From Desulfatiglandales bacterium (GTDB lineage Bacteria > Desulfobacterota > DSM-4660 > Desulfatiglandales > Desulfatiglandaceae): a stretch of 64,000 nucleotides of DNA. The notes below the pieces were generated by a model, which had not been told where the DNA came from, made no database searches, and saw only the letters and a list, made by a program, of their open reading frames with translations. The translations under genes and the position numbers were made by a program. The DNA is taken from the NCBI GenBank assembly GCA_963662465.1, contig OY759599.1:5344001-5408000 (forward strand). The letters are read 5' to 3'. The first letter of the stretch is position 1; each line of letters opens with the position of its first letter. Shown here piece by piece: positions 1 through 24,056 of the stretch.

Positions 1-233
1 ACCCGGTACGAACGCGAAAGCTTCTCTTGAACAAGCGGGAAATCAAACGGTTGATCGGAAAAACCGAAGCAAAAGGCTATTCCCTGATTCCCACCAAGGT
101 CTATTTTACACGGGGCAAAGCCAAAGTGGAAATTGCACTGGCAAAAGGCAAGAAAAAATACGATAAAAGACAGGCGCTGAAAGAAAAAGAGTTAAAACGG
201 GACATAGCGCAGGCACATAAGGAACAACGCTGA
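1..233 (+). CDS. smpB: SsrA-binding protein, 3' part (gene starts before the window)
   Basis: [12 protein letters not shown]...[30 protein letters not shown] is the SmpB C-terminal signature. Confidence 0.95.
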
Positions 234-237
234 AGGT

Positions 238-281
238 TGTGAAAAACCTCACTTGACGACCGTTTTTTTTTGTGATAGGCA
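238..281 (+). promoter_or_regulatory. Possible Rex-like operator abutting a weak sigma70 promoter of fhs
   Basis: TTGTGAA-AAAC-CTCACTT (238-255) resembles TTGTGAA-N4-TTCACAA; TTGACG at 253-258 with a poor -10 17 bp downstream. Confidence 0.25.
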
Positions 282-392
282 AGGATTCTCAAAAAAGTTT
301 CGGGTCTATTTTAGATATGTGAACATTCACTTGGGAAGGATTTTGTTTCCAACCCATAAAAACATCATAACCATGAAGGAGGAATAATAAGA

Positions 393-2156
393 ATGGCTTA
401 TAACGCGGTAGAAATGGCAGATTGGCAGATTTCCGAAGCTGCCGAAAAAAACATGCCGACACCTGATGAATGGCGGGAGAAGTTAGGCCTTAAGACCGAA
501 GAAATGCTTCCGATGGGAAGACTGGCCAAGTTGGATTTTCTGAAAATCATCGATCGCCTCCAGGACCAGCCCGATGGCAAATACATTGAAGTTACAGCCA
601 TTACCCCCACGCCTCTGGGCGAAGGCAAAAGCACCACCTCCTGCGGTCTGATGGAAGGTTTGGGAAAACGCGGCGTTAGCGTCGGCGGCGCTCTCCGACA
701 GCCCTCCGGCGGCCCCACCATGAATGTCAAGGGAACTGCAGCCGGCGGCGGTAACTCACTCCTGATTCCCATGACCGAATTCTCACTAGGACTCACCGGC
801 GACATCAATGACATCATGAACGCCCACAACTTGGCCATGGTGGCCATGACAAGCCGTATGCAGCACGAGCGCAACTACAACGACGAGCAGCTTCAACGTT
901 TGACGGGCATGCGTCGCCTCGATATCGATCCCACCCGCGTGGAAATGGGCTGGATTATCGACTTCTGCGCCCAGTCGCTGCGAAACATCGTCATCGGTAT
1001 GGGCGGCCGCTTTGACGGCTTCACCATGCAGAGTAAGTTCGGCATCGCCGTGGGCTCCGAGTGTATGGCGATCCTGGCGGTTATCCGTGACCTGGCCGAT
1101 CTCAAAGAACGCCTCAACAACATTACCGTGGCCTTTGACAAGAGCGGCAAGCCGGTCACCACCGGCGATCTGGAAGTGGGCAACGCCATGACCGCTTTCA
1201 TGCGCAACACCATTAACCCGACCCTCATGTGTACCGCCGAGTACAATCCTTGCATGGTGCATGCCGGCCCCTTTGCCAATATCGCCGTGGGTCAGTCCTC
1301 CATCATTGCCGATCGCGTGGGTCTGAAATTGTTTGATTACCACGTCACGGAATCCGGATTCGCGGCCGACATCGGCTTTGAGAAATTCTGGAACGTTAAA
1401 TCCCGCTTCAGCGGTCTGAAACCCAACGTATCGGTTTTGACCTCTACCATCCGCGCCCTGAAAATGCACGGCGGCGGCCCCAAGGTTACCCCCGGCATCA
1501 AAATGGACGAAGTCTACACCAAAGAGAACCTGGAACTGGTGGAAAAAGGCTGCGAGAACATGGTCCACATGATCGGAGTTATCCGCAAAGCCGGCATTAA
1601 CCCGGTGGTCTGCATCAACCGCTTTTACACCGACACCGACGCTGAGTGCGCCATTGTCCGCAAGGCGGCCGAGGCTGCGGGCGCCCGATGCGCCGAATCC
1701 AAGCATTGGGAAAAGGGCGGGGACGGCGCGCTTGAGTTTGCCGATGCCGTTATCGATGCCTGTAATGAGGAAAACGATTTCAAATTCCTCTATCCGTTGG
1801 AGATGAAGCTGCGTGACCGCGTCGAAAAGATCGCCAAGGAAGTCTACGGCGCTGATGGCGTTTCCTGGACCCCCGAAGCCGAAGCCAAGGCCAAGATGCT
1901 GGAAGCCGATCCCAAGTACGCCGACTTTGCCACCATGATGGTCAAGAGCCACCTGAGCCTGTCCCACGATCCGACCGTCAAGGGCGTGCCCAAGGGCTGG
2001 ACCCTGCCCATTCGGGACGTGTTGATCTACTCCGGCGCCAAGTTCCTTTGTCCCTGCGCGGGCGCCATCAGCCTGATGCCCGGCACCGGTTCCAACCCCG
2101 CCTTCAGGCGGATTGACGTGGATACAACAACCGGAAAGGTGAGCGGCCTGTTCTAA
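393..2156 (+). CDS. fhs: Formate--tetrahydrofolate ligase
   Basis: [55 protein letters not shown] motifs; AAGGAGG RBS. Confidence 0.97.
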
Positions 2157-2184
2157 TTAGAACGCGGTTCTATTATTAACCCCC

Positions 2185-2220
2185 AAAAAAAGGATGATCA
2201 TGTGATCATCCTTTTTTTTT
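2185..2220 (+). terminator. Intrinsic (bidirectional) terminator after fhs
   Basis: A-tract, GGATGATCA-tg-TGATCATCC, T9. Confidence 0.85.
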
Positions 2221-2648
2221 GAATTGAGTTATTGACTTTCGGGCATAGCCCACTCACAAATCAAGATAATAACCCCATCCCCACAGGTATAGTTGAACTA
2301 ATTTTCCCCATACAAGGATCATTTTCAGTCCTTGAGTCCCATTGTGGGCTTTTTTTACCATTATTAAATAGGCCACCCAGTCAGCCGCATAAGTCTAAAT
2401 GTTGTGGGGTTGTATAACCCATCAAAATTAAAAGGCGTTTTCGGTAAACAAGAATGCATTATGAACATTCATAACTTGAATCCAAGGTAAGTCAAATGTT
2501 TGGCCGTTGGCTAATTCAAACAGGCTCCTAACAGCCCTCTGGCAAATTCAGCACAACTATCTGAATTTATGGACGATTTTAATGAACATTGTTAAATAGG
2601 TTTGCTAGATTAGAGTCCCAAAGATACCCTTAATTTGGGAGGCGAGCT

Positions 2649-3738
2649 ATGCAACTGGCTGAAAATGTTAAGAATGGCGATTTGACGCCGGTATTTGAAG
2701 ACGGGACCAAGCTAACTGCCGAGGGAAAGTTTGAATTATGGCGCCAAATCTATTTATACCCCAACGCACCGAGTCGGCAAATCTTGGAGGAAGCCAGCCA
2801 ACTCAATATCACCATCCGGCATTTGAATCGCCTCAGGAACTCATGGGGTATCAGCCGGACAAAGGGCCGTCCCAAGAAACCCATGGCAGAGCAGTCGTCA
2901 TCAGATGTGCCGGTTTCTATCAAACTCAATGCCAACTTATCGTTTATCGGGGTACACATTTTTGCCTGTTGGGTCGAGATGCAGGGTCTTTTCCCAACGG
3001 TCCTGGAACTTCTTAAGGAAGCCATCTCATTGCATATGGGAAACTACCCACAAGATTCTTTCCCTTTATTGAGCCACCAAGATGAAACTTTGTTGGCCCG
3101 TTTCAAGGCGCTTTTCTTTGCTCCGCTGTTCGGTGTCCAAAAATTGATCGAGTATGATGTCCGAGAACATGCTCTCGAAACCGTTATCGGCAGAAGCTAT
3201 CAAAGTTCCACCTTGAACCGGTTTTTGGGCCAATTGGAACGTATCGACGCCGCACCGGTACCCAAGAATGCTCTGATATCAGCAGATGAGAACGCTGGCA
3301 ACATCTGTTTCATCGATGGTCACATGATTCCTTTTTGGAGTCGGCTTTCGATGCACAAGGGCAAAATCACCATGCTGGGAAGAATTATGACCGGATCTCA
3401 GGCGATCGGGCCCATATTGAAACGGGTCATGGCTATTTACTTCGACTACCAACCACCTGACACGCGTCTTCCCAAGATGATTATCGAGTTTTGCGCTCAA
3501 ATCGTCACTTTGACGGGAATCGAAATTTTCGTCATCGATCGGGAGGTCAATTCGGAAGCCATTGCGCAAGAATTTGCCGAGAACGGATGGGGTCTTTTGT
3601 GCATGCTGGATAAAAGCGAATATAAAGACCTTTCCGATTGGGAGAGCGAGTATATTGGCGAGCTCACTGACGTAGCCGAAGTATATCAAGGCCACTGGAA
3701 ACCGGAAAAGAAGAAGAACGACGACACGAGGCATTTTG
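2649..3738 (+). pseudogene. Putative DDE transposase, C-terminally truncated by the IS21-type element
   Basis: N-terminal HTH-like ...KGRPKK, FIDGH and VIDREVNS acidic motifs; after ...DDTRHF the frame runs into the IS21 left inverted repeat (ORF track extends it to 3827). Confidence 0.55.
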
Positions 3739-3988
3739 CTTCAACGCTAATCAAAACTGAACCAAGTTTGCTAATGGAAATTGAACCATTGGCTGTCACC
3801 GCCGGTGAGTACGGCCCTCAGGTATAGCGGACGATGAGGGATCCATAAGTGGCGGCAAAGGAGTCGTTGATGTAGATTTACTTTTCAATAAATTTTTATA
3901 AAATCTATTTTCTTTGGATTTGGTTTTCTTCTTCCAAGACAGAGGCTTGGTTAAGTGGAAATGCGATTTACTTTGTAGAATGGATGGT

Positions 3989-4024
3989 GAAGGCCCGAAG
4001 TAGCCGCTTCGGGCCTTCTTTTTT
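3989..4024 (+). terminator. Intrinsic terminator-like hairpin inside the IS21 left end
   Basis: GAAGGCCCGAAG-tagccg-CTTCGGGCCTTC followed by a T tract. Confidence 0.7.
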
Positions 4025-4073
4025 GACCACCGGATAGAGCCGGAAGCCACACACACGCCAATTTTATATAAGT

Positions 4074-4517
4074 GTGTTTCCGGCCAATTGCAAGGCCGGA
4101 ATGATGGGAGATGTCCTTTTAAGAGTGGTTCAATGCCGATGTTGTGGTTGCTTTTTTCACGTCTGTCGGTCGTGTTGGCGTGGCCAGGCCTATTGTGGGG
4201 AACGATGTCGCAGGATACGCCAAAGACAGCTGCACCGGAAAGCTCAGGGGAAATACCGCAATTCGAAAAAAGGGAAAGAGCGCCGTCGTTTGTACGAAAA
4301 AACAAAAAAATCCAAAAAAAATGGACTGAACCCTGGTGATGATAGTTCAACACCTCAAAAAGACTGTGATATTGAACCCAAAAAGCGGTCGGGGAACCGA
4401 CCCAGCTGTCTTTTTTGCGGGTCGATCGGGGTTGTTGTGGACCATTTTCCTCGCCGTGCTTATGCAGGGAGGGTTTTTTCAGATGTAACAGGCTTTGAGA
4501 AAACCCCATATCCATGA
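4074..4517 (+). CDS. Cys-rich (Zn-finger-like) basic hypothetical protein, IS21 passenger; start may be ATG ~4101
   Basis: CRCCGCFFHVCRSCWRGQAYCGERC and CLFCG motifs, R/K-rich helix. Confidence 0.65.
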   Translation: MFPANCKAGMMGDVLLRVVQCRCCGCFFHVCRSCWRGQAYCGERCRRIRQRQLHRKAQGKYRNSKKGKERRRLYEKTKKSKKNGLNPGDDSSTPQKDCDIEPKKRSGNRPSCLFCGSIGVVVDHFPRRAYAGRVFSDVTGFEKTPYP

Positions 4518-4529
4518 CAGGAGAAAAAA

Positions 4530-4949
4530 ATGATCAAAAAAAGAGTCCTTTTTCCCGAAAGAGTGCGTGTCATCAATGGAAGCTTCGGCTTTCTGGAGCA
4601 TCGTTTTTTGAGAAACGGCTTTTGGGAGAGCCTGAATCATCATGAGCTGCTGCTCTACATTTTTCTGGTGTTGGTATCTGACAAAAACGGGCTCTCTTAT
4701 TATGGTTACGACAGAATCTGCCGGATTTTAAAGGTGCATTTGGATCAATATATCGATGCCCGCGATGGCTTGTTGGACAAGGATCTGATTGGGTTTGATG
4801 GCCGTCTGTTTCAGGTTCTTTCGCTTCCCAGACGTCCTGTGATTGTGAAACAGGTAAAGGAGATCCGGCAAGGAAATTGGGTCAGTCTTGGAGAAACCAT
4901 AGAGGAAATCTTTCGGGAGACTGGGTATGGAATCCATCCGAACCGTTGA
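4530..4949 (+). CDS. Winged-helix/HTH-like hypothetical protein, IS21 passenger
   Basis: AGGAG RBS; ELLLYIFLVLVSDKNGLSYYGYDRICRIL...ARDGLLDKDLI resembles HTH_36-like replication-protein wHTH. Confidence 0.7.
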   Translation: MIKKRVLFPERVRVINGSFGFLEHRFLRNGFWESLNHHELLLYIFLVLVSDKNGLSYYGYDRICRILKVHLDQYIDARDGLLDKDLIGFDGRLFQVLSLPRRPVIVKQVKEIRQGNWVSLGETIEEIFRETGYGIHPNR

Positions 4950-5811
4950 TATTCATTTGCTGGAGTTGCGTTACGCTCATTGCCGGATAATGAATCACCA
5001 GGCTTTAAAGCGATTGAGGGATTCCATCGAAACTTACGGGCAGATCGTTCCGGCCCTGGCTATTGAAGAAAAAGACAAACTGATTCTGATTGATGGCTAC
5101 CTGCGTGTTCGAGCGCTTTGTGCTTGTGGAAAGGACCGGATATGTGTCCAATTCTCAAAAGAAAACGAACAAAATGCCATGTTTTCGCTTTTAACCAAGG
5201 CCAATGAACGGCAATGGGAAGTCATTGAGCAGTCTGTTTTACTTCAGGAATTACATCGGCGTTTTGGGTGCAGCCTCTCCCATATTGCAACCCGAATAGG
5301 GCGCGACAAGAGTTTTGTAAAACGGCGGCTGGACCTGGTTGAAGCCCTGCCGGAAAATATTTTGAGAACCGTGATTGCAGGCTCACTTTCAACCTGGGCT
5401 GCCAGCCGTGTCATGGCGCCGTTGGCGCGCGCCAACGGTGAAGACGCACAAAAACTGTTGGCCCACCTGGAAAAAGAACCTCTATCCACAAGGGAACTGG
5501 CCCGTTTCTACGCACATTACCAGAAAAGCAACCGGTCTGTTCGAGACCACATGCTGGAAAATCCATCCCTTTTCATAAAAGTTCTCGAACAAAGAACCCA
5601 GTCTAAACAAGCCAAAGAAGTTCATGATGGACCGGAAGGCAAATGGTTCAAGGATATTGAAATGGTATATGCGGTTCTCAAACGTCTGGTGAAAACCGTT
5701 TCGCATGTCCATTACCCAAAAAGCGATCAGTTGAAGAAACAAACGCTCAAAACCTGGGTGAAAAAGATAGAAAAACAAGCACTGGAACTCAAGAAAGCGA
5801 CCCAATTATGA
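4927..5811 (+). CDS. ParB/RepB/Spo0J N-terminal domain protein with HTH, IS21 passenger
   Basis: LRDSIETYGQIVP...LIDGYLRVRA (ParB box, variant GxxR), then HTH SLSHIATRIGRDKSFVKRRL; stop overlaps istA start (ATGA). Confidence 0.85.
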   Translation: MESIRTVDIHLLELRYAHCRIMNHQALKRLRDSIETYGQIVPALAIEEKDKLILIDGYLRVRALCACGKDRICVQFSKENEQNAMFSLLTKANERQWEVIEQSVLLQELHRRFGCSLSHIATRIGRDKSFVKRRLDLVEALPENILRTVIAGSLSTWAASRVMAPLARANGEDAQKLLAHLEKEPLSTRELARFYAHYQKSNRSVRDHMLENPSLFIKVLEQRTQSKQAKEVHDGPEGKWFKDIEMVYAVLKRLVKTVSHVHYPKSDQLKKQTLKTWVKKIEKQALELKKATQL

Positions 5812-7190
5812 TCCGACAATCCAAAAAAGATGCCATTGTGGAATTGAAAAAAACCGGCATGAGTTTGCGCGACATCGCCAAAACCCTGAAGGCCGGTCGC
5901 AATACCGTCACGAAGGTTTTAGATGATCATGACGAAGAGGCGGTACCCCAAAGGAACTCCCGGTATGAAGAACATGTCCCGTTGATCCGCGAGCTTTTCA
6001 AGGAATGTAAAGGAAATGCCGTGCGAGTAGCCGAGGAACTGGAAAGCCGCCAACAGATCAAAATCCCTTATCAGAGTCTGACCTGGATTATGAGAAAGTA
6101 CGAGATCCGGGAACGTAAAAAAAGACGGGCGGGCCAATACCATTTTAAACCCGGTCAGGAGATGCAGCATGATACGTCACCCCATCTGGTTGTCATTAAT
6201 GGGAAAAAAATGTCGACCCAGTGCGCGTCCCTGACCCTGGCCTTTTGCCGAAGGATTTTTATTCAGTATTACCCCTGTTTTACCCGGTTTGAGTGCAAGG
6301 TTTTCCTAAAAAAAGCATTCGAGTTTATGGACGGGGTGTGTTCCCGGTGCATGGTTGACAACACCAATGTTATTGTGGCCGGCGGCACCGGGCCTGATGC
6401 ATTGATTGCGCCTGAAATGAAATACTTCGGCGATATGTATGGAACCCGGTTTGAGGCCCATGCTGTAGGAGACGCCAATCGAAGTGCCCGTGTGGAAAGG
6501 CCTTTTCATTTTGTGGAAAACAATTTTCTTCCCGGTAGAACATTTGTTAGCTGGCAGGATTTGAACCGGCAGGCAATCGACTGGTGCCGGAATACAAGCG
6601 ATAAAAAGTTTAAACGGGCTTTAGGGATGACGCCGGATGAGGCCTATGTCATTGAAAAGCCATATCTCATTGATTTACCGGCATACCAGCCGCCAGTCTA
6701 TGTGGCAGAACACAGGGTAGCCGATGTTCAGGGATATGTGCACTTGGACACCAACCGCTATTCAGTCCCTGAAGCGCTGATTGGGAACTCCCTGGAAGTA
6801 CAGAAACATTGGCTCAAGGTCATCGTTTACGACAAAAACACAAAAGTGGCGGAACATGACCGCATACTGGATAAACGCAACACCCGAACAACCCTGCCCG
6901 GTCACCATGTTCCCATTCGAAGAAAAAAAGATCCCCGAATCCCTTCAAAAGAAGAACAGCTGTTGACGGGAGAGGATGCCATCCTGGATGAGTATGTGGC
7001 TGAACTGAAGAAAAGAAGTCACGGTCGCGGTGTGGTCAAGTTACGTCGGTTGCTTCATCTGAAACGCACTTATCCCGGGGAACCTTTTTTGAAAGCCATA
7101 ACACAGGCGCTTAAATATGGACTTTTTGATTTGTCGCGTCTGGAAAACATTATTCTCGATTATATCGCGGGAGACTTTTTTGATCTATGA
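5808..7190 (+). CDS. istA: IS21 family transposase IstA
   Basis: N-terminal HTH, PGQEMQHD, MVDN, SARVERPFHFVENNFL (DDE), GYVHLDTNRYSVP. Confidence 0.92.
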   Translation: MIRQSKKDAIVELKKTGMSLRDIAKTLKAGRNTVTKVLDDHDEEAVPQRNSRYEEHVPLIRELFKECKGNAVRVAEELESRQQIKIPYQSLTWIMRKYEIRERKKRRAGQYHFKPGQEMQHDTSPHLVVINGKKMSTQCASLTLAFCRRIFIQYYPCFTRFECKVFLKKAFEFMDGVCSRCMVDNTNVIVAGGTGPDALIAPEMKYFGDMYGTRFEAHAVGDANRSARVERPFHFVENNFLPGRTFVSWQDLNRQAIDWCRNTSDKKFKRALGMTPDEAYVIEKPYLIDLPAYQPPVYVAEHRVADVQGYVHLDTNRYSVPEALIGNSLEVQKHWLKVIVYDKNTKVAEHDRILDKRNTRTTLPGHHVPIRRKKDPRIPSKEEQLLTGEDAILDEYVAELKKRSHGRGVVKLRRLLHLKRTYPGEPFLKAITQALKYGLFDLSRLENIILDYIAGDFFDL

Positions 7191-7906
7191 AAAAGAAAAT
7201 TGAACAGTTACTCATTGATTTGAAGTTTAAAGGCATGCTGAAGGCTCTCGAAGAACAGTTGGCTTCGGCTGAAAAGAACGGTTTTTCCATTCACGAGGTC
7301 ATCTACAATCTCCTGGCTGAGGAATTACGTTTCCGGCAGGAGCGCAGCATGATCTATCGGGTCCAGATTGCAAAGCTTCCATGGGAATGGACCCTCAACT
7401 CCTTTCCGTTTGATCTTCAGCCGGGAATACAGAAGAGCCGGATCATGACGTTGTCCGGCCTTGACTTTATCAGCCGAAGAGAAAACATCGTGTTCCATGG
7501 AAAAACCGGCGTCGGCAAAACGGGATTGGCCGTGGGGATCCTTCGTCAAGCCATTATTGCCGGGTACCGGGGGCGTTTTTATAATGTTCAGGATTTGCTG
7601 GATCAGCTCTATGCGTCTTTGGCAGATCGGTCCACCCCGAAACTCCTCAATGCCCTTTGCAGATATGACCTGCTTCTGCTCGATGAACTGGGATACCTGA
7701 CCCTCAAAAAAGAGCAGATGAACGCCTTTTTTAAACTCATGAAAGATCGCTATGAAGCCGGTCGGTCCACAATTATTACGACCAATCTTCAACCTGAACA
7801 ATGGTATTCGCTGCTTGAACCAAAGGACATGGTCGATGCCTTGCTGGATCGTCTCAACCATCGCTGCATCAACATTCATATTGATGGTCCTTCCCTCAGA
7901 AAATGA
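7187..7906 (+). CDS. istB: IS21 helper AAA+ ATPase IstB
   Basis: Walker A GKTGVGKT, Walker B LLLLDELGY, STIITTN, ALLDRLNH, IDGPSLR. Confidence 0.95.
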   Translation: MKKKIEQLLIDLKFKGMLKALEEQLASAEKNGFSIHEVIYNLLAEELRFRQERSMIYRVQIAKLPWEWTLNSFPFDLQPGIQKSRIMTLSGLDFISRRENIVFHGKTGVGKTGLAVGILRQAIIAGYRGRFYNVQDLLDQLYASLADRSTPKLLNALCRYDLLLLDELGYLTLKKEQMNAFFKLMKDRYEAGRSTIITTNLQPEQWYSLLEPKDMVDALLDRLNHRCINIHIDGPSLRK

Positions 7907-17201: not shown

Positions 17202-17567
17202 ATGGACGGGCTAGGTTTGACATCGGATACTGACGGCAAAGACAAGCCGGCGTCAGAGGGATTGCCGCACAATCTTCGAACTTTTTTCTGGGATGTGGAT
17301 ACTGGCAGACTCTCCATTACCGGGTCGGCCCATTTTATCATCGGCCGTTTGATGGAACATGGCGATGAAGACGCGGTGAGATTCCTCTTTAAAAGTTACA
17401 GCCGTGATGAACTGGTCCAGGTTTTGAGAAAGAACAGGACCATTTCAAGGCGTTCACATGTTTTCTGGCGCCTTTTCCTTGGAATCGAAGAAAAATCATG
17501 TACACTGAAACGATATCCAACGCCTTATGGCAACTGCTCAAACGCCTCGATGGATTCCCGGAGTTAA
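17202..17567 (+). CDS. Putative antitoxin (DUF6922-like) of an AbiE-type pair
   Basis: LRTFFWDVD...FIIGRLMEHGDEDAVRFL..YSRDEL...FWRLFL; overlaps the downstream nucleotidyltransferase gene. Confidence 0.75.
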   Translation: MDGLGLTSDTDGKDKPASEGLPHNLRTFFWDVDTGRLSITGSAHFIIGRLMEHGDEDAVRFLFKSYSRDELVQVLRKNRTISRRSHVFWRLFLGIEEKSCTLKRYPTPYGNCSNASMDSRS

Positions 17568-18142
17568 AAATCGCGTATCTGGGGGGTGGAACAGCTCTGG
17601 CGCTTCAATTGGGACATCGCCGTTCTGATGATCTCGACTTTTTCCTTCCGGAAGACTTTAATATACAGACTCTGCTGCGAGAGTTCGGAAAACAGGACAT
17701 GACAATCACGGTTCTCGCTCAGACATCACGCCACACGGAACTTATCGTTCAGTCCTTAAAAGTCGATCTCATCGAAGAGCAGATCCCCCTGACGCGCCCG
17801 GCTCGATTGATCCATCGGGAAATCAGGAATCTGAATATGGCGGATGCCGTGGATATTGGGCGTATGAAACTTCTGACCATCGGGAGCAGGGGCGGCAGGA
17901 AGGATTTTGTCGACCTTTTCTGTCTTACGAGAGACATAATTTCTCTAAAGTCTCTGATCGCCTTGTCCATTGAAGAAAACCGGGGCATCAGGTACAGCAA
18001 ACTATTGTTCTTAAAGGGCCTCGTGGATTTTGAAACGGCCGACCTGGAACCGGATCCTGTCATGATCTGGGAAATAGACTGGGATACTGTGAAAAAAACC
18101 CTGATCGCTGAGGTAAAACAAATCGCCGGTGAGATTTGTTAA
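17498..18142 (+). CDS. Nucleotidyltransferase AbiEii/AbiGii toxin family protein
   Basis: YLGGGTALALQLGHRRSDDLDFF, MKL.TIGSRGGRKDFVDLF. Confidence 0.88.
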   Translation: MYTETISNALWQLLKRLDGFPELKIAYLGGGTALALQLGHRRSDDLDFFLPEDFNIQTLLREFGKQDMTITVLAQTSRHTELIVQSLKVDLIEEQIPLTRPARLIHREIRNLNMADAVDIGRMKLLTIGSRGGRKDFVDLFCLTRDIISLKSLIALSIEENRGIRYSKLLFLKGLVDFETADLEPDPVMIWEIDWDTVKKTLIAEVKQIAGEIC

Positions 18143-18298
18143 TCCACTTTGATCCAAAATATTGCATGAGCGCGTTTTCTGAGAAATGCAAAGGCGTCTT
18201 TGCGGGACATTTCAGATAGCCGGTTTGAAACAGCAGGGCCCCCACGCCCAAACGCTCTAGGTCGTACACACTGAAAAGGGATTGTAAACCTGTTATAT

Positions 18299-18757
18299 TT
18301 AGAAAGACAACATCCTATCCCCACCGATCACACCCTCCACCGTCTCCGGGCGGTTTTTTTGTTTGGTGGATCGTTCTTCTAAATATTGTTCCGCAGCATC
18401 TACCAACAACTGAGATCTTTTCATTCCGGCGCTTGTCCTGTATTCATCTACTCGAACCAACAGTTTTTCCGGGAAAATCACATTAAATCGTTTGGTCTTT
18501 GTATATTTCTTTTTGATAGATTCATTCACCGGAATCGGTATGATTTCAGATTCCGGATTTTCGCTCTGCAACTTTTCACGAGACGATTTTTGATGTACCA
18601 CTGTCTCCTGTTCAGATAAACATGCAGCCAAAGCATCAACCCCCATTTTATAGGCTTCATCCCAGGTTTTACCGAAGGTCTCACAGATTTCCACATCTGG
18701 AATTGAGACTAAGACATTATCATCTTCTTTTGTGAAGACAGCGTAAAAAAACTCCAT
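18299..18757 (-). CDS. hicB: HicB family antitoxin with C-terminal RHH domain
   Basis: FYAVFTKE...VSIPDVEICETFGKTWDEAYKMGVDAL; TKRFNVIFPEKLLVRVDEY....MKRSQLLVDAA. Confidence 0.88.
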   Translation of the reverse strand: MEFFYAVFTKEDDNVLVSIPDVEICETFGKTWDEAYKMGVDALAACLSEQETVVHQKSSREKLQSENPESEIIPIPVNESIKKKYTKTKRFNVIFPEKLLVRVDEYRTSAGMKRSQLLVDAAEQYLEERSTKQKNRPETVEGVIGGDRMLSF

Positions 18758-18889
18758 TTTTGCCTCCTTTTTTATTCTTTAATTCCGGCTCGTTTCAAAA
18801 TATTGTTTACCGTTATATAATAAAAAACCAACAGGTTACACTCCCCATTACAGCATAAATAAATATTTTTCAATAGCTATCGAAAAAAG

Positions 18890-18949
18890 AAACCTCCTGT
18901 TAAGATGAAGTCGCTTTCCAAACAACTTTAACTTAAAAAGGAGGTTTCA
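18890..18949 (+). promoter_or_regulatory. RBS-sequestering hairpin of the IS110 transposase gene
   Basis: GAAACCTCCT...AGGAGGTTTC inverted repeat covering the Shine-Dalgarno. Confidence 0.6.
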
Positions 18950-18950
18950 A

Positions 18951-20237
18951 ATGGACGGTGTAGATACTACCAGGCTGGAGCGTTTTCGTCAATTGAGGAA
19001 GGAAATCCGTGGATCCAAGGAACATTTGATTGTAGGCATTGACGTGGCCAAGGATAATCATCATGCTTTTTTGGGGACAGCCAGGGGAAAAACACTTCTG
19101 AAGCGGTTGGTTTTTAACAACAATTTTCAGGGGTATGAGAAATTGTTCACATACGTTGATGCTACCAAAGTTAAGAATAACCTGAATAAAGTGGTCTTTG
19201 GTCTTGAACCGACCGCCAATTACCACAAACCTCTGGGCGAACATTTGATCAAATGCGGTTTTGATGTGGTGCTTGTGGCAGGCACGGCCGTGAAGAAAAA
19301 CCGTGAATTACTGGATGGGCGCTGGGATAAGCATGATACGAAGGATGCGGCCAATGTAGCGGATTTGGTTTCCCAAGGCAAATGTCTGTTTTACGAATAT
19401 CCGATCATGCCGATTCGTGAACTGCGAAATCTCCTGTCTTTTAAACGTCGGCTGAAAAAACAGGAACATGGGGCCAGAGTACGGATTCGGAATCATTTGC
19501 TTGCTCAGTATTTTCCTGAATTGGATCCTTATTTTTCCCGGATATCAGGCTGTAGCCTTAGCGTTGTGAAATGGTGTCTGGAACCTTCTTTGATTGCAGG
19601 ACTGGAGTACGAAGAGTTCCTTAGGTTGGTCGCACCCGGTAAACGTACGGTAAGACAACTGGAGTACGTGAAGCAGATTTGGGAAAAGGCATTTGAATCC
19701 ATCGGATGTAATGCCGGGGGAACCGTTCAGTTTGAGGCAAAAATGATGGTGGAAGAACTTGAACATGTTCGGGAATCAATTTTGGAAGTCGAAGAAAAGA
19801 TTGAAGAAATTTGCTTGGCTTTTTCTGAATACAAACATCTTCTCACCATACCTGGTTTTGGAAAAGATATTTCATCGAAGGTTTTGGGCGCTATCGGCAA
19901 CCCATTTCGGTTTGATAATGCAAAACAGGTGGTAAAACTGTCAGGGTGGGACCTGAATGCAAACCGTAGCGGAAAAAGTTCAGCGGGTGCTACGGCCGTA
20001 ATTTCTAAAAAAGGCAAAGCCGACCTGCGCTATGCGTTGTACCAGGCGGCCCTGGTTGCTTCATCTAGAAACCAACACTTTGTTGCATACTTTACGGAAA
20101 AACTCCGGGGAAGATCCCGCGAACGGGGCATCAAGACAAAAATGAGAGTGAAACTGGCGGCTAAACTTCTGGTAATCGCGTGGACCTTAATGAAAAAGCA
20201 GGAACCGTTCAATCCTGAATATTTGAAAGTAACATGA
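18951..20237 (+). CDS. IS110 family transposase/recombinase (DEDD)
   Basis: IVGIDVAKDNH, FGLEPTANY, KHDTKDA (DEDD); LLTIPGFG, NRSGKS, ISKKGKADLRYALY. Confidence 0.95.
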   Translation: MDGVDTTRLERFRQLRKEIRGSKEHLIVGIDVAKDNHHAFLGTARGKTLLKRLVFNNNFQGYEKLFTYVDATKVKNNLNKVVFGLEPTANYHKPLGEHLIKCGFDVVLVAGTAVKKNRELLDGRWDKHDTKDAANVADLVSQGKCLFYEYPIMPIRELRNLLSFKRRLKKQEHGARVRIRNHLLAQYFPELDPYFSRISGCSLSVVKWCLEPSLIAGLEYEEFLRLVAPGKRTVRQLEYVKQIWEKAFESIGCNAGGTVQFEAKMMVEELEHVRESILEVEEKIEEICLAFSEYKHLLTIPGFGKDISSKVLGAIGNPFRFDNAKQVVKLSGWDLNANRSGKSSAGATAVISKKGKADLRYALYQAALVASSRNQHFVAYFTEKLRGRSRERGIKTKMRVKLAAKLLVIAWTLMKKQEPFNPEYLKVT

Positions 20238-20380
20238 TAGAAGCCAAATCAGCCAAGAACCTCCGGTAAAGCCGGGGGTTTACTCAGAATAATGTCCACA
20301 CTATCAGGAAGTGGGGGCATGGAGACGGCAGTCAAACGACATCATTGCACAATGAGCAACATAAGACAGCCGGAGTTGAA

Positions 20381-21316
20381 ATGGATGAACTTGAACGATT
20401 TAAAAAAGAAATTAGCCTGATGGAATATGCACCGGCCCACGATTACACTGAGCTTGACCGTAGCCAGTCCAGCAAGACATGTGTAGTACTCAGGCGCGAG
20501 GCTGATGACGGCAAAATCGCAGTGAGCCGGGGCTATGATGGGCATTGGGTTTACTATGATTTCAGGCGTGGCAAAGGTGGTTCAATCCTTGACTTTGTAA
20601 TGCAGCATACCGGCTGCAATCTTGGCCAAACAAGAAAAGAGCTGAGAAAAGCGTTATGCAGCAACGTTAATTCTTTTTCCCATACTGCCCCTTTACCTAA
20701 TCCTCGATCAGCCACCAAGAACCGGCAAAAAGTGGCGTGGGAATATGCTGACACCACGCCCATTACAAGGCATCATGATTACTTGGAAAGCCGGGGGATT
20801 GGCCTTGAAGGCATTTTGGCTGGTCGGTTTGCCGGCGCCGTAAGAGTTGATCGGTATCGGAATGTTTGTTTTCCGTATTTTGATTTTAAGGGGATAGCGG
20901 GTATTGAAAGGCGGAATCATAATTTCAAATGTTACACGAAAGGAGGCAGTAAAGGGTTGTGGAGGAGTACGCTGATAGAGGGTGACTCAAAGGCCGTGAT
21001 TTGTGAAGCTCCAATTGACGCACTTTCCCATAGCAAACTGCGCCATGATAGCAACGACCGAACCAGGTATTTTGCAATCGGCGGCCAGATTAGCTATTTT
21101 CAATGGGAGTTGATTGATGGTCTGATAAAGAAATACAGTTCCGAAAAAATGGATATTTTTCTTGCATTTGACAACGACCCAGCCGGAAGAAAATATATCC
21201 GACAATTCCAGGAGCGTTATTCAGGGGTGTCATTTACGTTAGATTTGCCGCCCCAGGAAGGTCAGGACTGGAATGATGTTCTTCAGAGCAAACAACCAAT
21301 CGAGGGAAAATCTTGA
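20381..21316 (+). CDS. DUF3991/Toprim domain primase-like protein (IS110 cargo); ORF track start 20345
   Basis: GHWVYYDFRRGKGGSILDFV, YLESRGI, VICEAPIDALS, FLAFDNDPAG, GQDWNDVL; GGAG RBS before ATG 20381. Confidence 0.85.
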   Translation: MDELERFKKEISLMEYAPAHDYTELDRSQSSKTCVVLRREADDGKIAVSRGYDGHWVYYDFRRGKGGSILDFVMQHTGCNLGQTRKELRKALCSNVNSFSHTAPLPNPRSATKNRQKVAWEYADTTPITRHHDYLESRGIGLEGILAGRFAGAVRVDRYRNVCFPYFDFKGIAGIERRNHNFKCYTKGGSKGLWRSTLIEGDSKAVICEAPIDALSHSKLRHDSNDRTRYFAIGGQISYFQWELIDGLIKKYSSEKMDIFLAFDNDPAGRKYIRQFQERYSGVSFTLDLPPQEGQDWNDVLQSKQPIEGKS

Positions 21317-21372
21317 TTATTTTCTGAAGGGAAATGCAGTTGTTGTTTTACATATAAAAGCATGCAAGTTTA

Positions 21373-21532
21373 TCAGTGAGAGAGCTCGATGACTAACGTT
21401 GGGACCATTTTGGATCTCGTAGGGGACAATACTGGGCCTCTCACTGAACTTTACAACCTGGATAAGGGATGATAGGTGGCCGCCCAGCAGGGCGAGCATG
21501 CCGGATAAACGTAACGATAAGGTGTAGAGTTC
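21373..21532 (+). ncRNA. Putative IS110 bridge RNA (target-binding loop 21373-21447, donor-binding loop 21446-21532)
   Basis: Two adjacent stem/internal-loop/stem modules whose loop strands match the element's target and circle-junction sequences around the GT core (see findings). Confidence 0.75.
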
Positions 21533-21857
21533 ATAAAAGGTGAGAAACTCACTGAAAACTGCAAAAAGTCCGCAACGGACTTAATGCTGAATTGTGCAAA
21601 AAATTTTGGACATAGCGTAACTACCTGTTATTACAGGGTTTGCAGTTTTTTGAAGTTTTTTCTTGACAGGAGCATTATAGGATGTCCCCTTTGGGATGTC
21701 GGCAGCTTGCCTGGGGATTGGTATTGTTTGTCCGTTTTTTCCCCAAATTTCGTGACGGCCTTCTCGGAGGAAGTTCCACCCGGATGCGCTCAAGAGTTTG
21801 AGTAGTTCCCGCTTTGTCATTTCCGTCCCCCCGCAGTTGAAGTTGGAAGTATTGTAG

Positions 21858-21901
21858 TGTGTAATTGGGTATCAATCAAACGAAAAATACACAATTACAC
21901 A
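21858..21901 (-). promoter_or_regulatory. Inverted-repeat operator upstream of hicAB
   Basis: TGTGTAATTG...CAATTACACA. Confidence 0.55.
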
Positions 21902-21921
21902 TTTTGCAAGACAATTTCCCA

Positions 21922-22094
21922 GTTTTGCCGAAGCGGCGGGGATGGGCCATGAAGTAGTAGCGGCCCTCCTCCAGCATTCGGAGAATCCAGGGGGTCTTGT
22001 CCACATACAAAAACCCCTCACGGCGAATGATCTCAAAGGATTACAGGTCAATGGGCAGTTTGAGAGGGGGCATTTGGCTGAATCTCCTTAAAAA
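21922..22094 (-). repeat. Direct-repeat copy 2 of the AAA-ATPase-like 5' fragment (with nonsense change)
   Basis: Near-identical to 16679-16851; CAA changed to TAA in the coding frame. Confidence 0.85.
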
Positions 22095-22113
22095 TACTTC
22101 CCGGATACCCCAC

Positions 22114-24056
22114 GAGGGGTTTGCGCTGTGCTTAAGTCTCTGGTATCCTGGAGGGATTTGGCAGTGTCAAAAAAACATTACCCCAAAAAAAAGATGGGTG
22201 GGCATCCTGAAATCAAGCACTTAGCTAGATCGAGTCGGAATTTTCCATTTTTTCACCCCAAGCGAAAGAACTTGTCGGAATACCTTGATTTTAATACAAA
22301 ATATTGTACAATGCCTTCATCAGATAACAGGATAGAGTGTTTCTTTAAATATTTGATGGAGGCCGAAACTTGGCAGCAGTGAGTCCGTTTCTTTTTTCGT
22401 GGAATGATGTCGAAGCACGCTCGGATTTGGACCGTTTCTATCTGGTGCGCGATAATCTGCCTGATGAGAATATTGTAGCGGCACTTGAAAAGCGTCGCGG
22501 CAATGGGAGAGATGATTTTCCGATACGCGCAATGTGGAACGCGCTTATTGCGGGAGTCGTGTTCCAGCATGCATCCATTGAATCTTTGATTCGCGAATTG
22601 TCCAGGAATCCGGCGTTATTAGAGGCATGCGGATTTGATATTCTGCCGAGGCAAAAAAAACCGGTAGCTGAACTGAGACGCAATGAGGAAACGGGCCGAA
22701 TGGAAATCATACGGTCTGAGAGCGGAAATGCATATTTTTTGGTTCCAGGTAGTTGGAATTTCTCAAGATTTTTAAGGAGCGTCATAGAACTGGAAGAATA
22801 TGGTAATATGGTCAGCGGCATGGTGCGTGGGCTTCGAGAATCCTTAATGACAGAACTCCCTGATTTTGGTTGTCATTTAGGGTATGACGGCAAGGCTATC
22901 AACAGTTATAGTACGGGACAAGAAAGCCGGAAAACCGGTGAAACCTCCGATACGGATGCAGATTGGGGCAAGCATGAAACGAAAGGGACAGACAGTAAAA
23001 CCGGAAAGCAGTGGACAAAAGTAAAAAGCTGGTTTGGATATGGCCTTCATTTGATCGCTGATACCCTATATGAAATTCCGGTGGCAGTTCATGTAACACC
23101 TGCCTCGCATTCGGAACACAAGGAACTGCGAAGCATGATCAAAGAAATTTTTGAGGAAACACCGCAGCTTGGCGAGCGCTGTGATGATTTTGTGGCGGAC
23201 CGTGGTTTGGATTCCGGCAAAACTAAGGCTCAGCTGTTGGATGAATATGGGATTCGGCCCGGCATTGATACCCGTGAACTGTGGAGAGATGAAAAGAATG
23301 AGCCGGGATACGATCCTGCAAAACCGATCACACGACCTCTTTATCCTGACCGGGCAGATACCATTGTGTATACTGAGAAAGGGACAGTCCATTGTATTTG
23401 TCCGGCTACTGGAGAACAGCGGGACATGGCTTTTTGTGGCTTTGAAAAAAATCGCAATACCCTGAAATATCGTTGTCCCGCAGCTGCAAACGGCTTTTCC
23501 TGTGAAGGATGTGGAGAGTGTTCATCTGCGGGGCAAGTTAATCCCGGAGATTATGGGCGAATTGTCAGAATAAATATCACTGAGGAAGATCGGCGAATCT
23601 TCACACCCATTCCCTATGGTACGCAGGGTTGGGACCGAGCGTATAATCGGCGTTCTTCTTTGGAGAGAATCAACAGTCGGATCGATAATGATTTTGGTTT
23701 TGAGAAACATTACATACGCGGCCAAGCCAAAATGCAAACAAGAGTTTGCTTGGCCACCGCCGTAATGATGGCAATGGCCCTTGGTCATGTAAGGGCTGGC
23801 CGTATTGAGCAAATGCGCTCCCTTGTACGGCCAATAGCCAGAGCCGCCTAATCCAATTTATTTAAAATAGTTATAAATAAATGATTTAATTTAAATTTAA
23901 AGGGATTAGCATGTCCAATTATCGGGTTTTTGGGGTATGTCTTTGGAAACCATAATATTCTGCTGCCATGTCGCCCTCTCAGACCTCGCGCCCGCGTTTT
24001 TTTGGGGCCCAGAACACCCCCGGTACGGCACAAAAACGGTACAGCGCAAACCTCTC
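22114..24056 (+). mobile_element. IS element (IS1182/IS5-like), 1943 bp, 5-bp TSD CCCAC
   Basis: TIR GAGGGGTTTGCGCTGTGC / revcomp GAGAGGTTTGCGCTGTAC; CCCAC at 22109-22113 and 24057-24061. Confidence 0.85.
22370..23851 (+). CDS. DDE transposase (IS1182/IS5-like; DUF772-like N-term, Cys-rich insertion)
   Basis: GYDGKAI, DADWG, WFGYGLHLIAD, VADRGLDS, YNRRSSLERINSRID; GGAGG + TTG start. Confidence 0.88.
   Translation: MAAVSPFLFSWNDVEARSDLDRFYLVRDNLPDENIVAALEKRRGNGRDDFPIRAMWNALIAGVVFQHASIESLIRELSRNPALLEACGFDILPRQKKPVAELRRNEETGRMEIIRSESGNAYFLVPGSWNFSRFLRSVIELEEYGNMVSGMVRGLRESLMTELPDFGCHLGYDGKAINSYSTGQESRKTGETSDTDADWGKHETKGTDSKTGKQWTKVKSWFGYGLHLIADTLYEIPVAVHVTPASHSEHKELRSMIKEIFEETPQLGERCDDFVADRGLDSGKTKAQLLDEYGIRPGIDTRELWRDEKNEPGYDPAKPITRPLYPDRADTIVYTEKGTVHCICPATGEQRDMAFCGFEKNRNTLKYRCPAAANGFSCEGCGECSSAGQVNPGDYGRIVRINITEEDRRIFTPIPYGTQGWDRAYNRRSSLERINSRIDNDFGFEKHYIRGQAKMQTRVCLATAVMMAMALGHVRAGRIEQMRSLVRPIARAA

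Follow-up and report, generated by a model that had tools for sequence, protein, structure and literature searches.

Bridge-RNA recombinases have been modelled and engineered as one protein and one RNA. In the 64,000-nt stretch of DNA analyzed here (the window), an IS110-family element of 2,874 bp, located at 18812-21685, retains a gene for a primase-like protein between these two parts. This raises the questions of whether the gene belongs to the mobile unit, where it came from and what it may do for the element. The element interrupts hicA and carries a GT core at both ends (Table 1). Deletion of 18812-21683 in silico restored a hicA frame of 58 aa on the minus strand, with its stop 14 nt before the ATG of hicB, and a HicB_lk_antitox match (Pfam) adjoins the HicA_toxin match. 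The empty site was also observed in the contigs of runs X1 and X2, which belong to one public sample. One contig of 1,949 nt in each run joins 18811 to 21684, skipping 2,872 nt, with 0 mismatches across 212 and 217 flanking bases, and the joint is ambiguous by 2 nt, which are the GT core. The empty-site contigs and the restored frame confirm to the base the limits given in the original prediction, namely an element that splits hicA with GT on both sides. The empty site has a single copy of the core and the filled site one at each end of the element, and no long terminal inverted repeats were found.

Table 1. Coordinates (window positions) of the element, its parts and the interrupted hicA gene.
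Feature	Position	Strand	Evidence
hicA toxin gene, 3' part (last 13 codons and stop)	18772..18811	-	Sequence; in-silico empty site; X1/X2 contigs
Left end (LE), 139 nt, non-coding	18812..18950	+	GT core 18812-18813; -10-like box; recombinase RBS
DEDD (RuvC-like) bridge recombinase, ORF1, 428 aa	18951..20237	+	Pfam; NCBIfam
Spacer: structured leader upstream of the primase, opening the captured segment	20238..20380	+	Fold; copy comparison
DnaG-type primase (predicted), ORF2, 311 aa	20381 (ATG)..21316 (stop)	+	Pfam, profile and fold matches
Short linker, end of the captured segment	21317..21361	+	Homology to primase-less relatives
Bridge (seek) RNA gene	21362..21585	+	49 right ends aligned; covariation; guides; fold
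Left target guide	21391-21399	+	Within bridge RNA
Right target guide, GGGGAC	21422-21427	+	Within bridge RNA
Donor-guide-like stretch	21460-21473	+	Within bridge RNA
Terminal hairpin	21567-21582	+	Within bridge RNA
Right-end tail	21586..21685	+	TTGACA 21663-21668; GT core 21684-21685
hicA, 5' part	21686..21820	-	Pfam HicA_toxin 1e-6; in-silico empty site

ORF1, which had been read as a DEDD recombinase, matched DEDD_Tnp_IS110 (5.5e-23) and Transposase_20 (7.7e-17) in Pfam, with the DEDD/RuvC-like domain N-terminal and Transposase_20 C-terminal as in the IS110 family. It also matched the NCBIfam model NF033542, 'IS110 family RNA-guided transposase', at 171.6 bits (cut-off 140), and 5,425 of the 8,000 candidates scored were recombinase homologues. 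The non-coding right end (21317-21685), announced as 370 bp, measures 369 nt and contains a conserved structured RNA, whose gene begins after the primase stop, as had been claimed for the guide RNA. In the consensus, compensatory changes were observed in 23 of 36 pairs, and the fold has a z-score of -5.57; no Rfam family matched positions 18000-22500 at E up to 1. When compared by eye, left guide and left flank are identical at 8/8 positions in L028, L030, L048, L069 and L070, which carry four different guide sequences. By the same comparison, the right guide varies together with the right flank (L054, L102), and a donor-guide base varies together with the terminus of the right end, RE (L047, L053/L054/L097, L059/L082). 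The element possesses the structured RNA with loops matching target and donor that is expected of the IS110 family, and its short LE and the guide RNA in a long right end follow the layout described for the IS1111 subgroup (PMC11208160). Taken together, these results identify it as an IS110-family insertion sequence that is mobile, works with a bridge RNA and has an IS1111-type layout.

The LE shows a -10-like box (TATATA/TATAAT) at 18814-21, next to the GT core, and its start, GTTATATA, is kept in copies at other sites. At the opposite end, the TTGACA lies 17 nt before the right end, and the right terminus is conserved across the 49 aligned right ends. Judged from these motifs, circularisation would yield a promoter composed of TTGACA, 17 nt and the LE TATATA. 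In the inserted form, a hybrid flank/LE promoter-like site covers 18794-18821, with 10/12 matches. None of the listed contig joints is of the 'goes back' type that marks a circle junction, contigs being a form of data that loses rare forms.

ORF2 had been described as an intact DUF3991/Toprim protein with its own RBS, a description borne out by a GGAG placed 5 nt upstream of the ATG and by Pfam matches to Toprim_2 (1.6e-12) and DUF3991 (3.9e-6); an alternative TTG start lies at 20345. Residues E209, D264 and D266 of the Toprim domain are invariant among the 38 sequences aligned. Residues 77-232 match the T7 gp4 primase fragment (profile, E = 1.1e-6), and the protein matches phrog_239, primase/helicase, at 4.3e-13. 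The predicted structure (pLDDT 87.7) gave Foldseek matches to Aquifex DnaG (2au3, 1.5e-9), DnaG cores, T4 gp61 and Twinkle, covering the fold of the RNA-polymerase domain (N-subdomain and Toprim). The fold of the N-domain resembles the zinc-binding domain (ZBD) of DnaG (1d0q, Foldseek probability 0.99), and no set of four conserved Cys/His was seen in the primase alignment. The protein stops about 10 residues past Toprim and has no helicase-binding C-domain. Overall, sequence profiles and the structural model confirm ORF2 as a predicted intact DnaG-type primase, which would combine a zinc-less ZBD-like domain with a Toprim polymerase domain.

The primase had been claimed to be an integral part of the mobile unit, and a search for full-length copies at other sites had been proposed. 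Other genomes, and metagenomes, contain such recombinase-primase-RNA copies at differing sites, with 85-98% nt identity (L017, 97.6%; L008, 90.5%; L104, 89.7%; L018, 87.7%; L106/L107, 87.2%; L020, 85.5%). The composite occupies at least 12 different sites, with 12 different right flanks and the same gene order and junctions, and the left target guides differ between copies. In 10 comparisons, the primase dN/dS was 0.20-0.33, compared to 0.08-0.15 for the recombinase. Together, the copies elsewhere, their differing left guides and purifying selection uphold the claim of integrality. Within the same copies, primase dS reaches only about half the recombinase value, which simple co-descent does not explain.

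Among 80 loci of recombinase relatives, the primase is present in 6 and the RNA block directly follows the recombinase in 67, while 4 loci were too short and 3 were left unresolved; the RE measures 313-367 nt in most primase-less relatives. L027, whose recombinase is 91% identical (aa), has no primase and is placed in the recombinase tree just outside nine primase-bearing copies. The 164 nt that separate its recombinase from the RNA show no similarity with the captured segment (best local score 21), and we therefore rejected L027 as a deletion derivative of the composite. Since the RNA directly follows the recombinase in 67/80 loci and L027 is primase-less at 91% identity, the primase is a secondary, lineage-specific acquisition of a young subclade, neither ancestral nor one-off. 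The original prediction had held that close relatives with the RNA right after the recombinase would point to a one-off insertion: such relatives do exist, L027 included, but the number of occupied sites contradicts the one-off event.

The captured segment begins with the spacer, predicted as a structured stretch of about 140 bp and found to be 143 nt with a folding energy of -44.3 kcal/mol (z = -3.88, 200 shuffles). It is absent from primase-less relatives, with which homology restarts at about element position 2542-2567 (window ~21353-21378). A block of about 47 nt at its 5' side, holding the strongest hairpin, is missing in 3 of the 7 other copies compared (L018, L020, L031) and is therefore not a required part; the remaining ~80 nt, on the 3' side, are conserved. 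For the same reason, the hairpin was rejected as a priming (ssi-like) site, and no conserved priming hairpin was found. Capture, RNA-directed transposition as a unit, left-guide diversification, primase retention and the landing in hicA make up the established part of our best explanation. The ancestors were about 1.75 kb long, with an RNA gene beginning 10-30 nt past the recombinase stop, and a 1.13-kb segment, comprising the leader and the DnaG-type primase gene, was captured exactly in that slot in one young subclade. The resulting 2.87-kb composite then moved as a unit into AC|GT|CCCC-like sites picked by its RNA, its left guide diversifying while the primase stayed under purifying selection; hicA is its landing site in this genome.

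The same primase family was found in other transposons and in plasmids. In 36 of 80 metagenome loci of the family, IstA-IstB genes lie directly upstream on the same strand, and long inverted repeats bracket all three IS21 genes in L118 (39 nt, 100%), L110 (48 nt, 90%), L141 (41 nt, 100%) and L122 (58 nt, 98%). The nearest primase outside the composite, 73% identical (aa), is that of the IS21 element in L110. In a primase tree obtained from a quick IQ-TREE run, IS21 genes were upstream in 35 of the 40 rows of one IS21-linked clade. A primase of 64% identity lies downstream of rve and AAA_22 genes, in a TniA/TniB-like element (L103), and a second IS110 lineage (L112) carries a primase of 62% identity beside a recombinase of 58%. 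Among plasmids, the family was detected in 445 records, 343 of them conjugative or mobilisable, and none of them exceeds 39% identity to the window primase. The same module is also C-terminal in proteins of 750-1,200 aa with Relaxase, MobA_MobL or Mob_Pre domains. In the IncQ-like plasmid pPNAP08, a Toprim protein of 829 aa takes the position of the relaxase-primase, alongside MobC, a RepA helicase and RepC. Some members of this large family thus form the C-terminal domain of a plasmid relaxase, others are plasmid genes standing alone, and others again are the third gene of an IS21-type, a TniA/TniB-type or one other IS110-type element.

We consider that the best explanation of the whole, with a probability of roughly one half, is a captured and retained primase that serves the element by priming. 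More tentatively, the primase may lay primers on element DNA for the element's own transposition intermediates. Its gene would share transcripts with that of the recombinase, the promoter created on circularisation being the strongest source, and the enzyme would act independently of the host's helicase-primase pair. Excised circles, or transposition intermediates that are single-stranded or forked, could in this way be copied; a conservative cycle of cut-out and paste-in that lacks such priming would not raise the copy number. The accessible text on IS621 attributes excision to the recombinase-RNA complex (PMC13626964), and excision of IS621 is therefore regarded as conservative. The primase is dispensable for transposition as such, because 67/80 related loci have none. 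Other points against the role proposed here are the internal stop in the primase frame of one lineage, the low primase dS and the failure to find a conserved priming hairpin; moreover, a primase alone supplies neither origin nor helicase, and the link to transposons could reflect the easy capture of small plasmid genes. Contigs of RNA libraries (X11, X16) span the recombinase-primase junction and the stretch from primase to right end; these libraries may hold DNA, and contig depth cannot rank the parts.

A broader generalization, which we regard as unlikely as it stands, would be that a zinc-less, helicase-independent DnaG-type branch, derived from plasmid relaxase-primases, was repeatedly recruited as a cis-acting priming factor by transposons with circle or fork intermediates (two IS110/IS1111 lineages, IS21 and TniA/TniB-like). 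If this were so, natural RNA-guided IS110 transposition could include a replication step, in which the excised circle or a single-stranded intermediate is copied and which is missing from current cut-out and paste-in models. IS21 and IS110/IS1111 are both named among the families with circular intermediates in the accessible part of one study (10.1101/2023.06.07.543989).

Another reading of the same data is that the primase is neutral or self-serving cargo of plasmid or transposon origin, which helps itself, the host or the plasmid that carries it (it might, for instance, prime plasmid or ICE DNA in trans) and stays outside the transposition cycle. This would agree with the transposition of relatives that have no primase, with a family made mostly of plasmid proteins (the 445 records and the relaxase fusions) and with the internal stop in the primase frame of one lineage (L105, L106, L107). 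Published precedents point the same way, as far as their available text goes: cargo-bearing IS110 elements are enriched in plasmid-derived DNA (10.64898/2026.08.14.744561), and ISPpu9 has a selfish downstream module (PMC12288879). However, the repeated capture of one gene family directly after transposition genes, on the same strand and in three transposon families, the consistency of the IS21-linked clade and the purifying selection on the primase inside the composite make mere cargo somewhat unlikely. Even in that case, the element would show cleanly how an IS110 can carry cargo, with its ends known exactly and its empty site observed.

With the primase, the excised circle could also behave like a small plasmid that replicates autonomously or can be mobilised, and the element would then persist and spread as an episome. 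Relatives at the relaxase-primase position of IncQ-like plasmids such as pPNAP08 fit this scheme, and the Discussion of the 2026 preprint, in its available form, considers the possibility that some IS110 circles replicate as plasmids (10.64898/2026.08.14.744561). Yet the element encodes no initiator, helicase or relaxase and has no recognisable oriV/oriT. In X1/X2, its zero-mismatch pieces had a contig depth of ~45-63, similar to that of the flanks (46.5-47.1), and therefore gave no sign of a multicopy episome, contig depth being a poor measure; we find this scheme improbable. Toprim domains are present in defence nucleases, and a cargo gene for a Toprim nuclease with a role in defence or counter-defence would agree with a weak PADLOC match of ORF2 to PDLC03800, the DnaG-like domain of a DRT protein (E = 0.0014, 15.5 bits). 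This match is sub-threshold, no PADLOC defence family passed for the element, no partner gene lies within it, and fold and profile matches to primases extend over both the ZBD-like and polymerase domains, which leaves a defence function very improbable. A one-off secondary insertion or mis-annotation, placing an unrelated gene in a single copy, might be suggested by the single intact element copy in the source genome and by the many relatives that have no such gene, but is refuted for practical purposes by the recurrence of the composite, in identical gene order and with identical junctions, next to 12 different right flanks across several genomes and metagenomes.

In comparison with known systems, the element shares with IS1111-group elements (Durrant 2024, PMC11208160; Siddiquee 2024, PMC11187229) the DEDD recombinase, short LE, long RE with guide RNA, dinucleotide core at both ends, target- and donor-matching RNA loops and, putatively, a promoter split across the ends. 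It differs by the 1.13-kb protein-coding insert between recombinase and RNA, by an RNA that has no Rfam match and by a sub-terminal inverted match of only 6 nt (TATAAT), shorter than the 7-17 bp of that group. Expanded cargo-carrying IS110 elements (10.64898/2026.08.14.744561) and ISPpu9 with ssr9 (PMC12288879) likewise mobilise extra DNA, often plasmid-derived, and have a module downstream of the transposase, judging from the available portions of these papers. In contrast, the element here carries a single compact gene, always in the same slot inside canonical ends and retained while the whole subclade diversified. The claim that the architecture was undescribed holds in part: cargo-carrying IS110 elements have been reported in these two papers, whereas no IS110 element with a primase was found in the accessible text of the papers searched, and the available main text of the preprint (10.64898/2026.08.14.744561) contains neither 'primase' nor 'toprim'.

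On mobilisable and IncQ-like plasmids, relaxase-primase fusions and free-standing proteins named 'DUF3991 and TOPRIM domain-containing' have the same module without a helicase-binding domain, but the window protein stands alone, and the insertion sequence around it offers no relaxase, origin or helicase. IS21 elements with a third, primase-like gene place the same protein family directly after the transposition genes and inside the ends; their transposase chemistry differs, being that of a DDE IstA with an AAA+ IstB. IEE is, like the proposed role of ORF2, a case of a primase-type enzyme acting on circle-forming insertion sequences. Unlike ORF2, it is an AEP-type PrimPol-helicase fusion encoded outside the IS and promotes IS loss; the accessible part of the study reports that it enhances IS excision and leaves IS621 unaffected (10.1101/2023.06.07.543989). 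Relatives of the primase inside other transposon families hint that some transposons carry their own primer-making enzyme, which raises the question of whether DNA priming limits the success of circle-forming transposons. A 2.9-kb sequence-defined system with known ends, guide and target is well suited to testing whether circle copying boosts transposition. In addition, the interval from the recombinase stop to the RNA gene tolerates cargo, a property useful for the design of bridge-recombinase donors.

The 2,874-nt segment at 18812-21685 is a real, exactly delimited and recently mobile bridge-RNA element of the IS1111 type with a captured, selected primase of the DnaG type, a structural reading whose probability we put at about 0.9. 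It has GT at either end and splits a minus-strand hicA toxin gene. When 18812-21683 was removed in silico, a single 58-codon hicA frame was restored, with its stop 14 nt before the hicB start. Independent proof came from the empty site in a 1,949-nt Logan contig from X1 and X2, two sequencing runs of one public sample, in which 18811 is fused directly to 21684; 2,872 nt are skipped, neither flank carries a differing letter, and a 2-nt ambiguity remains in the cut. Since these runs also contain the remaining element as zero-mismatch pieces, and the break points of fragments from the element's own genome (19325, 19703, 20189, 21480 and 18852), they represent the same organism with the site empty; it is the empty form that the contigs read, and the filled form may coexist in the sample. 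The boundaries and parts in the original prediction were correct. The surroundings of the element are rich in mobile and defence-type genes, as presented in the table.

Features of the element, its neighbourhood and related loci (window positions, or positions within the named locus)
Feature	Positions	Remarks
AbiEii-family nucleotidyltransferase toxin gene	17498-18142	left of element
hicB	18299-18757	partner of hicA
Left end (LE)	18812-18950	
DEDD recombinase	18951-20237	428 aa
Structured spacer	20238-20380	143 nt; z = -3.88
Primase gene	20381-21316	GGAG 5 nt before ATG
Non-coding right end (RE)	21317-21685	369 nt
Left guide, loop side	21391-21399	
Opposite loop side	21422-21427	GGGGAC
DDE_Tnp_1 transposase	22370-23851	493 aa; right of element
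L002, 5'-truncated copy	1501-2995	own genome, C1:2924468-2928962
L004, solo right end	1501-1706	own genome; 206 nt, 99%
L005, solo left end	1501-1542	own genome; 41 nt, 98%
L017, repeat of last 30 nt of right end	4550-4579	127 nt downstream of full element
L019, nested ~1.6-kb insertion	about 6239-7876	in recombinase-primase spacer
L103, TniA/TniB-like setting	1014-4472	
L110, three-gene IS21 element	90-3517	metagenome locus; IstA, IstB, primase homologue; long terminal inverted repeats
L118, three-gene IS21 element	970-4606	metagenome locus; same gene set; long terminal inverted repeats
L141, three-gene IS21 element	39-3679	metagenome locus; same gene set; long terminal inverted repeats
L122, three-gene IS21 element	1494-5098	metagenome locus; same gene set; long terminal inverted repeats
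L112, recombinase and primase	183-2415	contig ends inside primase

We analyzed the guide RNA on an alignment of 49 right ends from relatives, for which RNAalifold gave 36 pairs with compensatory changes in 23; the copy in the window folds with z = -5.57. The matches that follow, between the RNA and the flanks or the RE terminus, were read by eye from a computed table. The left guide repeats the left flank plus GT. Guide and flank agreed in 8/8 positions at five loci carrying four different guide sequences (L028, L030, L048, L069 and L070), and the window's own left guide matched its hicA flank in only 5/8. The opposite side of the loop is the complement of GT plus the CCCC that flanks nearly every copy on the right, and guide and right flank have changed jointly in L054 and L102. 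In a further stretch of the RNA, one base covaries with the base preceding ATGT in the RE terminus, with three separate occurrences (L047; L053, L054 and L097; L059 and L082). As the RE has TTGACA placed 17 nt ahead of its terminus and TATATA follows the GT that opens the LE, the predicted circle would carry a consensus promoter aimed into the recombinase. ISPpu9 has an RNA module placed downstream (PMC12288879).

The composite moves as one unit. The primase had been proposed to be an integral passenger, and full-length copies with different flanks were indeed found at other sites in other genomes and in metagenomes. The 8.16-Mb genome itself holds one intact copy, one 5'-truncated copy and three small fragments. 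The truncated copy (L002; 96% nt) lies at another GT-CCCC site and consists of an intact primase (93% aa) with the right end behind it and, in front, the final 48 nt of the recombinase gene. This copy abuts a fragment resembling the start of an IS66-type transposase. Two of the loci in this genome, L004 and L005 (about 7.011 and 7.033 Mb), are solo ends separated by ~21 kb, the RE first and the LE after it; a hicB/hicA-like pair follows 130 nt past the solo RE. Among the 209 genomes of the order, seven carry the primase, own genome included: five of the ten other genomes of the genus and one of six in one further genus. Four full-length copies from other genomes keep the same part order (L017, 97.6% nt; L008, 90.5%; L018, 87.7%; L020, 85.5%), another bears a nested insertion (L019), and two are decayed (L022) or internally deleted (L021). 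Metagenomes added L104 and L106/L107, and partial copies in L105 and L108. Twelve different right flanks were observed, all of the form AC-GT-CCC(C). In L017, the flank at the 30-nt repeat resembles the inner LE and may be the trace of an older insertion. In one metagenome lineage (L105, L106 and L107), an internal stop splits the primase frame into two ORFs (103 and 198 aa). The left flank is common to L106 and L107, and their right flanks diverge after 6 nt.

Recombinase relatives were found at 80 loci in a scan that took a single genome for each species. The primase was present in six (recombinase 90-98% identical), 67 had the RNA block after the recombinase, four were too short downstream and three were of unresolved class. 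In the 67, the estimated recombinase-RNA gap was 10-462 nt, with 36 at ≤31 nt, and these elements measured ~1.73-1.80 kb. One relative (L027; recombinase 91% identical) carries in the primase slot a 164-nt insert unrelated to the primase segment, and branches in the recombinase tree just outside the nine primase-bearing copies. Because of these 67 loci and the position of L027, the ancestral order is recombinase then RNA, and the primase segment (element ~1427-2550) entered by a single capture at the root of what is a young subclade. A one-off secondary insertion had been the rival expected if relatives had the RNA straight after the recombinase; most do, but the composite occurs at many sites and is not a one-off. 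The slot after the recombinase tolerates inserts. That of L027 contains a terminator-like hairpin. Three further relatives (L068, L046 and L079) also have additional DNA in this slot, near it or within the RE. The distance to the RNA block was estimated at 462 nt for L068, 165 nt for L027 and 152 nt for L046; L079 has its RE terminus 1,620 nt past the recombinase, compared to 313-367 nt in most relatives.

Values of dN/dS were 0.20-0.33 for the primase (10 comparisons) and 0.08-0.15 for the recombinase. Within a given copy, the primase had diverged at synonymous sites roughly half as much as the recombinase (window 18951-21316 against L018, L020, L104 and others), for example 0.28 vs 0.44 and 0.16 vs 0.39. 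Elements may have recombined with each other, or the recombinase may have undergone gene conversion from relatives that lack the primase.

Pfam assigned Toprim_2 and DUF3991 to the protein, a profile of 38 homologues matched a T7 gp4 primase fragment (E = 1.1e-6), and the PHROGs matches were primase/helicase families. The best structural match of the AlphaFold model (pLDDT 87.7) was Aquifex DnaG, including its zinc-binding and polymerase domains (E = 1.5e-9), followed by Twinkle, T4 gp61, DnaG cores and T7 gp4; an isolated DnaG zinc-binding domain also matched. All 38 sequences keep the Toprim Glu and DxD; a set of four conserved Cys/His ligands and a helicase-binding domain are absent from the protein. 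From sequence and model, we read it as a predicted helicase-independent, zinc-less primase of the DnaG type.

Such a protein would be expressed along with the recombinase, chiefly from the promoter at the circle junction, and could prime synthesis on the element's own DNA independently of the host's helicase-primase pair. Excision of IS621 by the recombinase-RNA complex is conservative (PMC13626964); therefore, any duplication of the circle ahead of reinsertion would raise copy number. Circular intermediates are described for both IS21 and IS110/IS1111 (10.1101/2023.06.07.543989). Against a priming role, relatives manage without the primase, a stop interrupts it in one lineage, and the composite showed no origin and neither a helicase nor a conserved priming site. 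We give this putative role somewhat less than even odds.

In the literature searched, no IS110 or IS21 element was described as containing a primase, and the DUF3991 papers found did not concern transposons. A preprint describes expanded IS110 elements with cargo up to ~100 kb and raises plasmid-like circles; "primase" and "toprim" are absent from its main text, and its supplements could list such cargo (10.64898/2026.08.14.744561). The primase family (1,032 clusters at E ≤ 1e-30, 3,870 at ≤ 1e-10 and 9,670 at ≤ 0.001) is recurrently linked with transposons. Among 80 metagenome homologue loci, IstA and IstB lay directly upstream on the same strand in 36 and an IS110 recombinase in four; twelve had <300 nt upstream and 28 another context, including plasmid settings with KfrA, TrfA, RepA, Rep3, MobC and ParA. 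Also among these 28 is L103, by its gene content a TniA/TniB-like transposon setting, where a gene for an rve/Mu-transpos_C transposase (468 aa), one for an AAA_22 ATPase (267 aa) and then a 104-aa ORF lead up to a primase 64% identical to the window's. The three genes lie together within the longest inverted repeat (28-58 nt) in seven of the eight IS21-type loci inspected; the primase of one IS21 element (L110; 73% aa) is the nearest relative outside the composite. A quick tree placed the window's primase in a well-supported group of eight (four IS110, one IS21, one TniA/TniB-like, two of unknown context), apart from a clade of 40 with 35 IS21-linked genes. L112 is a second IS110 lineage (recombinase 58% aa; primase 62% aa, starting 5 nt after the recombinase stop) that likely captured its primase independently. 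In many members of the family, the primase forms the C-terminal domain of a relaxase, and in a 6.5-kb IncQ-like plasmid the primase module forms part of an 829-aa protein between MobC and RepA/RepC.
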